From sequence record OL825705.1: a stretch of DNA of 64,000 bases, one strand, 5' to 3'. A program made the position numbers and the translations under genes. The notes beneath the pieces were generated by a model, which worked only from the letters and a program-made list of their open reading frames with translations, had not been told where the DNA came from and searched no databases. This DNA comes from Escherichia phage vB_EcoM_DE7. Shown one piece after another: positions 25,581 through 36,143 of the stretch (positions within the stretch are counted from its first letter, which is position 1; each line of letters starts with the position of its first letter).

Positions 25581-26933
25581 ATGTGGAATCCAATTGTTAA
25601 TGTAGATATTACATTGAACACCGCAGGAACTACAAGAGAAGGTTTTGGTTTACCACTATTCTTAGCTTCAACAGATAACTTTGAAGAAAGAGTACGTGGC
25701 TACACTTCCTTAACTGAAGTTGCTGAAGATTTCGATGAGAATACTGCTGCATATAAGGCTGCTAAACAACTTTGGAGTCAGACTCCTAAAGTAACTCAGC
25801 TTTATATTGGTAGACGTGCTATGCAGTACACTGTATCAATTCCTGATGCCGTTACCGAAAGTACAGACTACTCGATTACTGTAGCTGCTGGCGGTGGAAT
25901 TTCTCAACCATACCAGTATACAGCGCAAGACTCAGACACTGCTGAAGTAGTGTTGCAACAGTTTAAAACACAGATTGAAGCTGACCCAACAATCAAAGAT
26001 AAGGTTTCTGTGAACGTAACTGGTAGTGGTGCTTCTACCACAATGGTTATTACCAAAGCTGGTGATAATGACTTTGTGAAGGTAACAACTACAGCACAGA
26101 CTGTATATATCGCAAGTACAACTGCTGATACAGCATCAACTGCTCTGGCAGCTATTGAAGCTTATTCTACTGACTGGTATTTCATCGCAGCAGAAGACAG
26201 AACTCAACAGTTTGTCTTAGCAATGGCTTCTGAGATTCAGGCTCGTAAGAAAATCTTCTTCACTGCTAACTCTGATGTAGCAGCACTGCAAGGTACAGAA
26301 TTAAACAGTGCAAATGATGTTCCAGCACAGCTTGCTAAGAACATGTACACCCGTACAGTTTGCTTGTGGCATCACACAGCAGCAGAAGACTATCCAGAGA
26401 TGGCATACATTGCTTATGGTGCTCCATATGATGCAGGGTCAATTGCTTGGGGTAATGCTCAGTTAACTGGTGTAGCTGCTTCTCTGCAGCCATCTAATCA
26501 CAGACCTTTGACAAGTATTCAGAAGTCAGCTTTAGATGCACGTCACTGTAACTTTATTGACCTTGATGGTGGTGTTCCAGTGGTTCGTAGAGGGATTACT
26601 TCTGGTGGGGAATGGGTTGATATCATCCGTGGTGTTGACTGGTTAGAATCAGACCTGAAAACTTCTCTGAGAGACTTGCTAATTAACCAGAAGGGTGGTA
26701 AGATTACTTATGATGATACTGGTATTACCCGTATTCGTCAAGTCATTGAAACCTCTCTGCAAAGAGCAGTCAACAGAAACTTCCTGTCATCTTACACAGT
26801 TAATGTTCCTAAAGCCTCTCAAGTTGCTTTAGCAGACAAGAAAGCTCGTATCCTGAAAGATGTTACCTTCGCAGGTGTCTTAGCAGGTGCTATCTTGGAT
26901 GTTGACTTGAAAGGTACAGTGGCTTACGAATAA
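25581..26933 (+). CDS. tail sheath protein
   Basis: 450 aa ORF directly followed by tube, chaperone pair and tape measure (canonical contractile-tail order). Confidence 0.6.
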   Translation: MWNPIVNVDITLNTAGTTREGFGLPLFLASTDNFEERVRGYTSLTEVAEDFDENTAAYKAAKQLWSQTPKVTQLYIGRRAMQYTVSIPDAVTESTDYSITVAAGGGISQPYQYTAQDSDTAEVVLQQFKTQIEADPTIKDKVSVNVTGSGASTTMVITKAGDNDFVKVTTTAQTVYIASTTADTASTALAAIEAYSTDWYFIAAEDRTQQFVLAMASEIQARKKIFFTANSDVAALQGTELNSANDVPAQLAKNMYTRTVCLWHHTAAEDYPEMAYIAYGAPYDAGSIAWGNAQLTGVAASLQPSNHRPLTSIQKSALDARHCNFIDLDGGVPVVRRGITSGGEWVDIIRGVDWLESDLKTSLRDLLINQKGGKITYDDTGITRIRQVIETSLQRAVNRNFLSSYTVNVPKASQVALADKKARILKDVTFAGVLAGAILDVDLKGTVAYE

Positions 26934-26948
26934 TAGAGGTAAATTGGA

Positions 26949-27395
26949 ATGGCTATGTATCAGCAATATTCCCCTAAAGACGTTGTATGTAGCTGGAATG
27001 GTATTGCCATTGAAGGCTTTGCTCCAGACTCATTCTTACGTCTACAGAGAACATCACCACTTATCACACCAGTTGTTGGTGCAGGTGGTCAAGTTGCTCT
27101 GACAAGAAATGCAGACAAGACAGGTACTATTGAGATTGAGCTAATGCAGACTTCTCTCTCTAATCAGATGCTTTCTGCAATTCAAGCTAAACAAGACAAT
27201 ATGGAACTTGAAGAAGATATCTCTTCTAACTTCGTAATCTACGACCCATCAGGCTCTGTTCTGGCAACTGGTATTAACGCTTGGTTGCAGGAATTACCAC
27301 AGATTGAACTTGGTCGTGACCAGAACTCTAAAACTTGGATTTTTGGTTGTGAGAAGCTAGACTACACTTCTACAATTCCAGCGTCAAGTGTTTAA
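26949..27395 (+). CDS. tail tube protein
   Basis: 148 aa ORF after sheath; strong terminator follows. Confidence 0.55.
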   Translation: MAMYQQYSPKDVVCSWNGIAIEGFAPDSFLRLQRTSPLITPVVGAGGQVALTRNADKTGTIEIELMQTSLSNQMLSAIQAKQDNMELEEDISSNFVIYDPSGSVLATGINAWLQELPQIELGRDQNSKTWIFGCEKLDYTSTIPASSV

Positions 27396-27406
27396 TATAT
27401 CCTATA

Positions 27407-27440
27407 AGGGGGAGACTTTAAAAGGTCTTCCCCTTTTTTG
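27407..27440 (+). terminator. rho-independent terminator after tail tube gene
   Basis: AAGGGGGAGAC-loop-GTCTTCCCCTT hairpin followed by TTTTTT. Confidence 0.8.
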
Positions 27441-27468
27441 TTTCTTTTAAAAGTATTAAGGAATCACA

Positions 27469-27867
27469 ATGAAAACAGAATCTAGAGTAATTAATGGCAA
27501 GAAAGTAAATATCATTCTGCTTGGGGCAAGAGATGGTATTAAGATGTCTATGAAGTTGGGTAAAATTGTTGTTCCAACTTTTGCACAGATGCTATCAAGT
27601 CTGACTGATAAAGATAAGAAAGAAGCTCCAATGGTTCCATTTAAAGAACTTGTTGAAGCTTGTTTTGACAGAATTGAAGAAATTAACCTTGAAGAAATGG
27701 CTACCCTATTATTTCAAGGGGCAACTGTTGATGACTTCCCACTTAATATTGATACATACTTCCAAGCAAACTATGGTGAATTTATTGATTACTTAGCATT
27801 TGCGCTGGAGGCAAATTTCGGAAGTTTTTTCGAAGCAAGCATTTTCAAAAGCCTAACTTCTCAGTAA
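27469..27867 (+). CDS. tail assembly chaperone (G-like)
   Basis: Acidic 132 aa ORF before tape measure; contains slippery T-TTT-TTC near 3' end. Confidence 0.6.
   Translation: MKTESRVINGKKVNIILLGARDGIKMSMKLGKIVVPTFAQMLSSLTDKDKKEAPMVPFKELVEACFDRIEEINLEEMATLLFQGATVDDFPLNIDTYFQANYGEFIDYLAFALEANFGSFFEASIFKSLTSQ
27825..27831 (+). promoter_or_regulatory. candidate -1 programmed frameshift slippery heptamer (T TTT TTC)
   Basis: X-XXY-YYZ heptamer 34 nt before the chaperone stop; the -1 frame is open into the next ORF. Confidence 0.5.
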
Positions 27868-27869
27868 AC

Positions 27870-28108
27870 ATGGGTAACACTCTACAGACACCACTAACTG
27901 ATGCTGCTGTAGAGGCAACCTATGAAGAAGCAGACGAGATGAAATTTGTGCTTGCTATTTATGGTATGGAAGGGTGTAAAGAAACACTTGACCAACTCTT
28001 TGCTATGACATTCTCTGATTTATTATCATTGAGACAATTCCTTGAAATTCAGAGGTCGTATAAAGAGGAAATTGCTTACAACGAACTTAGAAGAGCAGGA
28101 AAAATGTA

Positions 28109-28109
<1 letters not shown>
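27870..28109 (+). CDS. tail assembly chaperone frameshift extension (GT-like)
   Basis: In -1 frame relative to 27469-27867, no stop between slippery site and this ORF. Confidence 0.5.

Positions 28110-36143
<8,034 letters not shown>

Follow-up and report, generated by a model that had tools for sequence, protein, structure and literature searches.

A conserved slippery heptamer and a probable -1 ribosomal frameshift at the tail assembly chaperone locus of a Felix O1-like phage

Described systems and the chaperone locus of vB_EcoM_DE7

Bacteriophage lambda slips on the heptamer G_GGA_AAG in producing its tail assembly chaperones gpG and gpGT. The contractile-tail phage P2 reportedly makes gpE and gpE+E' through a -1 shift on T_TTT_TTG (at about 10% efficiency and with an extension that has no start of its own), a case that Christie, Temple and colleagues are said to have demonstrated experimentally in 2002, by means of fusion polypeptides and complementation. 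Here, we analyse two adjoining open reading frames (ORF1 and ORF2) that precede the tape measure gene in Escherichia phage vB_EcoM_DE7 (OL825705.1), and for which a first-pass annotation had proposed that a -1 programmed ribosomal frameshift joins them into one tail assembly chaperone (TAC) product. The 64,000-nucleotide stretch of DNA that was analysed is called the window throughout, and all the features described are on its + strand. The proposal is supported by a conserved heptamer with an open -1 frame behind it, by the non-conserved start codon of ORF2 and by the annotation of sister phages, and we place the probability of a ribosomal -1 frameshift at positions 27825-27831 at roughly 85%.

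The closest precedents come from the same group of phages. The window derives from a Felix O1-like myophage of the genus Felixounavirus, and its region 26900-28500 matches more than 200 GenBank phages (hosts: Salmonella, E. coli and Shigella) at 98-99% identity, with Escherichia phage REP12 at 98.7%. The Felix O1-like Salmonella phages Mushroom (KP143762.1) and Meda (MH586731.1) carry an annotated frameshift with the same gene, span, heptamer and junction as the window (the Meda record notes a 'Tape measure chaperone frameshift product'), and the Citrobacter Moogleviruses Moogle, Michonne, Mijalis, Mordin and Maleficent are likewise annotated with a two-piece joined coding sequence (CDS). The fusions that we derived from the nucleotide sequences agreed residue for residue with the deposited proteins, both for Mushroom (AJF40599.1/YP_009600435.1) and for Maleficent/Michonne (AKU44019.1/AYR00813.1/YP_009177317.1); the fusion of the window differs from that of Mushroom at two residues and is itself missing from the protein collection. 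The Citrobacter phage genome announcements mention the frameshift (PMC4319497, PMC4591319, PMC5543628), the -1 frame being specified in the Michonne paper (PMC4591319), and the original Felix O1 genome paper makes no mention of a frameshift. Most sister records, Felix O1 relatives included, annotate two separate genes, and the joined annotations are predictions. As such, the chaperone frameshift at this locus is already known and ordinary.

A paper on Pseudomonas phage Adele (December 2025; PMC12846349) described a conserved GTTTTT close to the 3' end of the gene for the N-terminal chaperone (TAC-N), in Vandenendeviridae and in 231 aligned phages of the Andersonviridae, the family that contains the Ounavirinae. 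It deals with the same type of locus, with a poly-T signal and with an argument drawn from the uninterrupted -1 frame; whereas it gives GTTTTT, we add the full NNT_TTT_TTY register, codon-choice statistics, Vequintavirinae and GC-rich uncultured relatives, and a Shine-Dalgarno (SD)-like element. Like lambda gpG/gpGT (Levin et al. 1993; Xu, Hendrix & Duda 2004; G:GT ratio of 30:1, as summarised in PMC5009743), the locus is flanked by the tube/major tail gene on one side and by the tape measure gene on the other. Lambda differs in being a siphovirus and its proteins have no detectable sequence similarity to those of the window. The likeness to P2 lies in the contractile tail and in a -1 shift on a T-rich heptamer, but the protein family is another one and the window case is predicted from sequence. 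The E. coli dnaX and IS911/IS3 cassettes combine a heptamer with an internal SD-like stimulator 9-14 nt upstream (PMC5009743), for which the window has a candidate; the cassettes add strong 3' stem-loops or pseudoknots and reach efficiencies of 15-50%, whereas no 3' structure was found in the window. Of the traits that define the G/GT class (Xu, Hendrix & Duda 2004), we found the gene position, the shifted overlapping ORFs, the in-register slippery site, the conservation and the lack of a downstream start.

The slippery heptamer and the -1 frame in the window and its relatives

ORF1 (27469-27867, 132 aa, zero frame, with AAGGA upstream of its ATG) is a short tail assembly chaperone (TAC-N, the analogue of lambda gpG) by its match to the Pfam family PF21822 (Phage_TAC_15; E 1.9e-19, 70.9 bits against a gathering cutoff of 22), in which ORF1 residues 9-124 align with profile positions 1-124 of 127, and to phrog_1613 'tail assembly chaperone' (E 7e-49). 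The TTTTTTC that had been pointed out at 27825-27831 was confirmed, and it lies in the zero-frame register AGT (27823-27825), TTT (27826-27828), TTC (27829-27831), i.e. counted from the ORF1 start at 27469 it forms the X_XXY_YYZ heptamer T_TTT_TTC. The ORF1 stop codon (TAA, 27865-27867) follows 33 nt past the end of the heptamer (34 nt had been given, an immaterial difference). The -1 frame, closed by a TGA at 27786, is open from 27789 up to the TAA at 28107-28109 and thus runs into ORF2 at 27870, as had been claimed; it reads FFRSKHFQKPNFSVNMGNTL, its translation (...KFFRSKHFQKPNFSVNMGNTL...) takes in ORF2, and the +1 frame is closed. The overlap that is open in both the zero and -1 frames (27789-27864, 76 nt) is the sole stretch that permits a productive -1 shift. 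A second in-register heptamer, A_AAT_TTC (27813-27819), which the first-pass annotation does not mention, is found inside it, 12 nt upstream of the main site.

A -1 slip on T_TTT_TTC would generate a 213-aa fusion, in which ORF1 residues 1-121 are followed by 92 new ones that replace the last 11. The -1 continuation (27831-28109, 92 codons and TAA) would constitute the C-terminal (TAC-C, 'T-like') part of the fusion, and ORF2 as called (27870-28109, 79 aa) is the 3' part of this continuation, matching phrog_4963 'tail assembly chaperone' (E 2.8e-55). The junction would fall in a predicted tryptic peptide of approximately 54 residues (IEEINLEE...ANFGSFFR), too long for routine mass spectrometry (MS); the predicted GluC junction peptide is ANFGSFFRSKHFQKPNFSVNMGNTLQTPLTDAAVE.

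The background frequency of slippery heptamers was assessed in the 71 gene-like ORFs of the window (17,757 codons), which hold 68 in-register X_XXY_YYZ sites (0.38% per codon), so that an overlap of 26 codons has a chance of about 10% of containing at least one generic in-register heptamer. The T_TTT_TTC at 27825-27831 is, however, the only in-register copy in the window, and the only heptamers with a -1 ORF of at least 40 codons behind them are the two inside ORF1. We reject chance as the origin of this site because it is invariant in distant relatives.

These relatives were recovered from GenBank by full-length tblastn with ORF1 (319 phage records), one locus being pulled per distinct lineage without regard to the motif, and comprised Felixounavirus (Mushroom, Meda), Mooglevirus (Maleficent), Suspvirus (SUSP1), Kolesnikvirus (phiEa21-4), Yersinia phage P778, Pectobacterium phage Wc4 and the Vequintavirinae A5-4 and Av-05 (~28% identity). 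TTTTTTC was in register within the ORF1/-1 overlap in 10/10 lineages, the -1 extension continued for 76-93 residues past the ORF1 stop (94-126 codons from the heptamer) and the +1 frame was closed. IMG/VR, when searched with the family alignment, added 75 loci (27 clusters below 60% identity), all of which (75/75 loci, 27/27 clusters) have NNT_TTT_TTY; because Ser/Cys-Phe-Phe was part of the peptide motif used to ascertain these loci, the independent evidence that they provide is codon choice only. Within them, the Ser codon is AGT or TCT and never one of the other four, the first Phe codon is TTT throughout, and the second is TTC in 67 loci and TTT in 8. Switching between Ser codon families with the third-position T retained is a prediction of selection on the nucleotide run. 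Several of the clusters have a GC content of 60-65%, with TTT accounting for 14-35% of their Phe codons and NNT for 11-28% of their Ser codons, and the probability that all 27 clusters would have NNT TTT from codon usage alone is ~10^-23.6, a value that treats as independent clusters that are not fully so phylogenetically. Each IMG/VR locus has an open -1 frame of 71-107 codons (71-126 over all relatives). Taken together, Ounavirinae, Vequintavirinae and environmental phages, down to ~23-30% identity, keep the site with an open -1 frame, an arrangement conserved beyond what the protein sequence requires.

The differences between the -1 extension and its relatives are mostly found at third codon positions (4/2/20 for the first, second and third positions versus SUSP1, and 6/4/26 versus the locus L036). 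Since substitutions are dominated by third positions and 71-126 codons are open in every locus, we regard the extension as coding. The -1 peptide is conserved right after the slip, with FFRSKHFQKP being identical in phiEa21-4 (~40% identical overall). When the 213-aa fusion was used as query in a protein database search, all matches were ORF1-type proteins of 132 aa, which cover 60% of it, and no relative was found in which both halves are in one uninterrupted frame.

Proposed mechanism, stimulatory elements and competing explanations

We propose that a minority of the ribosomes on the TAC gene would slip back by 1 nt at U_UUU_UUC (27825-27831), with the P-site tRNA-Phe re-pairing from UUU to UUU and the A-site tRNA-Phe from UUC to UUU, both in the -1 frame, where reading would resume at CGA (27831) and end with the TAA at 28107-28109. 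The products would be an abundant 132-aa TAC-N and a minor 213-aa fusion (TAC-NC). In an E. coli survey of all 64 heptamers, H_HH.U_UU.Y was among the most efficient motifs, efficiency was explained by cognate re-pairing in the A site (with the tetramer hierarchy A_AA.G >> U_UU.C > U_UU.U), and U_UU.U_UU.C is used by insertion sequence (IS) elements (PMC4066793). If the products work like lambda gpG/gpGT and P2 gpE/gpE+E', the tape measure protein would be coated by the N-terminal part common to both, and the tube protein would be brought in by the frameshift-encoded C-terminal domain, leading to tube polymerisation around the tape measure, with the short form in large excess. Family membership and synteny suggest these chaperone roles; the occurrence of slippage and its efficiency are likewise inferred.

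A GGAGG (27807-27811), SD-like and placed 13 nt 5' of the heptamer, is a reasonable candidate for a 5' stimulator, on account of its spacing and of the enrichment of its GAG codon. Internal SD sequences are known to stimulate -1 shifts at spacings of 9-14 nt (PMC5009743), a range within which the 13-nt spacer falls. A string of Leu, Glu and Ala codons gives rise to the element, with GAG as the Glu codon in 47/52 distinct contexts and in 20/24 clusters versus 10.2 expected (P = 1.7e-5; Poisson-binomial, with the expectation taken from the GAG/GAA usage of each locus and the clusters taken as independent of phylogeny). The structural genes of the window favour GAA over GAG (137:64). The GAG is lacking in four clusters, including phiEa21-4. 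In SUSP1, a stop codon is present in the -1 frame upstream of the slip; dual coding can't account for the GAG preference, because the -1 frame is untranslated upstream of the slip.

On the 3' side, a stimulator was rejected for this phage, as folds of 49, 60, 100 and 121 nt revealed nothing within ~40 nt of the heptamer. When 27300-28300 was scanned against Rfam, no family came near its gathering score, and the weak matches fell on the terminator-like hairpin upstream of ORF1 (described below). In certain distant relatives with GC-rich sequences a hairpin follows 7-9 nt after the heptamer, but it beats its shuffles in only one.

The same S-F-F-R-S-K fusion would arise by normal translation if RNA polymerase added one U on the T6 run, and because ribosomal and transcriptional slippage give the same protein (the two products derived from sequence are identical), a junction peptide can't separate them. 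The site is a homopolymer (T6 in 67 loci, T7 in 8), a 3' stimulatory structure was not found, and UUUUUUU is under-represented in all E. coli gene frames, possibly through slippage (PMC4066793). Nevertheless, documented productive cases of transcriptional slippage in bacteria use runs of ~9 A or T (PMC5009743), a run length of which T6 falls short, and selection for run length would favour TTT as the second Phe codon, where the C is kept in 67/75 loci, even in AT-rich genomes. Moreover, enrichment of the SD-like core at a distance known to stimulate -1 shifts of the ribosome would have no function in transcription. Hence, we consider slippage by the polymerase improbable as the main route.

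An explanation without any recoding, in which ORF1 and ORF2 are separate proteins and ORF2 is produced by termination-reinitiation at ATG 27870, follows the majority of GenBank records, where two distinct CDSs are given, and is favoured by the position of the ATG directly behind TAA 27865-27867 (TAA-AC-ATG). It also gains from the particle MS of the Mooglevirus Sf14 (Shigella phage Sf14, NC_042075.1; locus L088, 701-1338), in which gp42 (FDI99_gp115, the ORF2-equivalent) was detected and gp41 (the ORF1-equivalent) was not (PMC11821841); detection of the ORF2-equivalent means that the ORF2 frame is translated, which counts for the -1 shift as well. However, no SD-like motif was found 5-13 nt upstream of ATG 27870, and in the near-identical Felixounavirus contig L027 (IMGVR_UViG_3300045988_004167) the codon 27870-27872 is ATA, which amounts to a naturally occurring loss of the presumed start of ORF2. 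The first in-frame ATG of phiEa21-4, Wc4, P778 and the majority of distant loci sits 30-73 codons further downstream, if there is one at all, whereas conservation of the -1 peptide begins at the heptamer; the GenBank annotations of phiEa21-4 and Wc4 call no ORF2. The downstream segment has no conserved independent translation start, and ATG 27870-27872, which gives ORF2 the appearance of a gene in its own right, probably encodes an internal Met of the fusion. The predicted outer helix (27869-27875 with 27918-27924) of a hairpin within the -1 extension would, in addition, pair this ATG, and two separate genes leave the invariant NNT TTT TTY codon choice unexplained. We thus give independent initiation of ORF2 only a slim chance.

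The hairpin itself (27880-27914, CUCUACAG...CUGUAGAG) begins 48 nt after the heptamer and has a predicted energy of -13 kcal/mol in a 40-nt segment, and of -24.5 kcal/mol (z -2.2) in a 100-nt window that includes the outer helix. It is kept in Mooglevirus and Suspvirus, where CCG:CGG becomes CCA:UGG at synonymous Pro/Asp positions, and is absent from P778 and phiEa21-4. As a stimulator of the shift it was rejected, 48 nt downstream being too far from a ribosome positioned at 27825-27831.

A shift at the second heptamer (A_AAT_TTC, 27813-27819), alone or along with the main site, would have the register, the open overlap and the same -1 ORF in its favour, but we discard it as very improbable, given that this heptamer is not conserved (it occurs only in the window and a few relatives, with AAC TTC in most Felixounavirus, Mooglevirus and other lineages), that re-pairing of the P-site tRNA-Asn from AAU to AAA would be non-cognate, and that GGAGG is just 1 nt away, outside the 9-14 nt range.

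Several points weigh against a ribosomal -1 shift on T_TTT_TTC, besides the ascertainment of the IMG/VR loci and the incomplete independence of the clusters already described. The 49-60 nt 3' of the heptamer fold with a minimum free energy of -3.2 to -3.4 kcal/mol (z +0.8 to +1.2, worse than shuffles), and RNAalifold on nine Ounavirinae sequences gave a consensus of -0.39 kcal/mol, with no covariation or compensatory pairs. Because a 3' structure was not found, the efficiency may be low unless the 5' GGAGG helps. The literature holds no direct demonstration of the fusion, or of its level, in any Ounavirinae phage. In the window ATG 27870 is just 2 nt after the ORF1 stop, and some termination-reinitiation may take place in this phage. 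Lastly, an ORF2-equivalent seen in Sf14 particles in the absence of its ORF1-equivalent is not what a simple intact fusion predicts, as such a fusion would add ORF1 peptides.

The lambda chaperone products are absent from virions, whereas the ORF2-equivalent of Sf14 was detected in particles, which hints at something unexpected for a chaperone supposedly absent from virions. A more specific version of the ribosomal -1 frameshift, to which we attach only tentative belief and which we deem rather unlikely as a whole, would have the shift proceed without a 3' structure, boosted by the conserved GGAGG/GAGG 13 nt upstream, and the frameshift-encoded C-terminal part also associated with the particle, unlike lambda gpGT.

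Gene neighbourhood, annotation and significance

The genes are ordered along the + strand as sheath, tube, TAC, -1 ORF and tape measure, i.e. the G/GT arrangement that the first-pass annotation had recognised upstream of the tape measure gene, and which the matches of the two halves to PF21822 and phrog_4963 bear out. The tail sheath gene (25581-26933) was assigned through phrog_205 'tail sheath' (E 6e-123) and PF11863, and the tail tube gene (26949-27395), directly upstream of the TAC gene, through PF11681 (KPP10_Orf10) and phrog_280, its Sf14 homologue having been modelled as a tail tube (PMC11821841). The tape measure gene (28109-30355) matches Pfam TMP_3 (E 1.4e-15) and phrog_4036 (1511 bits).

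Between the tube and chaperone genes (27406-27443) there is a strong hairpin resembling an intrinsic terminator, with a 13-bp stem (AAGGGGGAGACTT/AAGGTCTTCCCCTT) followed by TTTTTGTTT; a terminator is annotated at the same place in the GenBank record of Meda. This hairpin may attenuate transcription, so as to keep the levels of TAC and tape measure protein below those of sheath and tube. At the other end of the locus, the stop codon of the fusion (TAA, 28107-28109) overlaps the tape measure ATG (28109-28111) in ATGTAATGG (28105-28111; TAATG), an overlap that is kept in Felixouna-, Moogle- and Suspvirus and in P778, and AGGA is present ahead of this ATG, at 28097-28100. This layout suggests that translation of the tape measure gene may be coupled to the few ribosomes in the -1 frame, or else driven by the AGGA.

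A relative of ORF1 with a solved structure was sought by sequence profile against the PDB (best E 0.13) and by Foldseek with an AF2 model (pLDDT 75, pTM 0.67), and neither search gave a significant match. The only structure that appeared in both, at non-significant scores, was 5ir0, 'ORF19' of a Vibrio cholerae PICI-like element (E 0.72 by sequence; best PDB match in Foldseek, with E 0.5-0.8, probability 0.66-0.75 and TM 0.4-0.63), which may hint that this satellite protein is TAC-like.

Some of the database entries for these sequences carry unexpected labels. 'Campylobacter phage A132' (MG065664.1) is a Felix O1-like sequence (98% identity), and identical chaperone proteins appear among genome assemblies of Staphylococcus hyicus and E. 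coli; host mislabelling or phage contamination of assemblies is the probable reason. The chaperone genes are named 'head closure protein' or 'tape-measure protein' in some records.

The practical consequence concerns annotation: GenBank has ~250 Felix O1-like genomes, and in most of them the -1 segment figures as a gene of its own for a 79-aa 'hypothetical protein', a 'head closure protein' or a second chaperone. A joined CDS should take its place, and many of the phages affected are candidates for therapy or biocontrol. To what had been described, the present analysis adds the register of the heptamer and its invariance over 27 lineages, the lack of a 3' structure in Felix O1-like phages, and an enriched SD-like element at stimulatory distance. 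One heptamer that is invariant across Ounavirinae, Vequintavirinae and uncultured GC-rich relatives, together with a possible SD-like stimulator, offers a clean natural test case for structure-independent -1 frameshifting in bacteria. The understanding of tail assembly chaperones is left unchanged by this locus; if true, a boost by GGAGG without a 3' structure, or a particle-associated C-terminal part, would refine the TAC paradigm modestly for myophages of the Felix O1-like, rV5-like and related groups.

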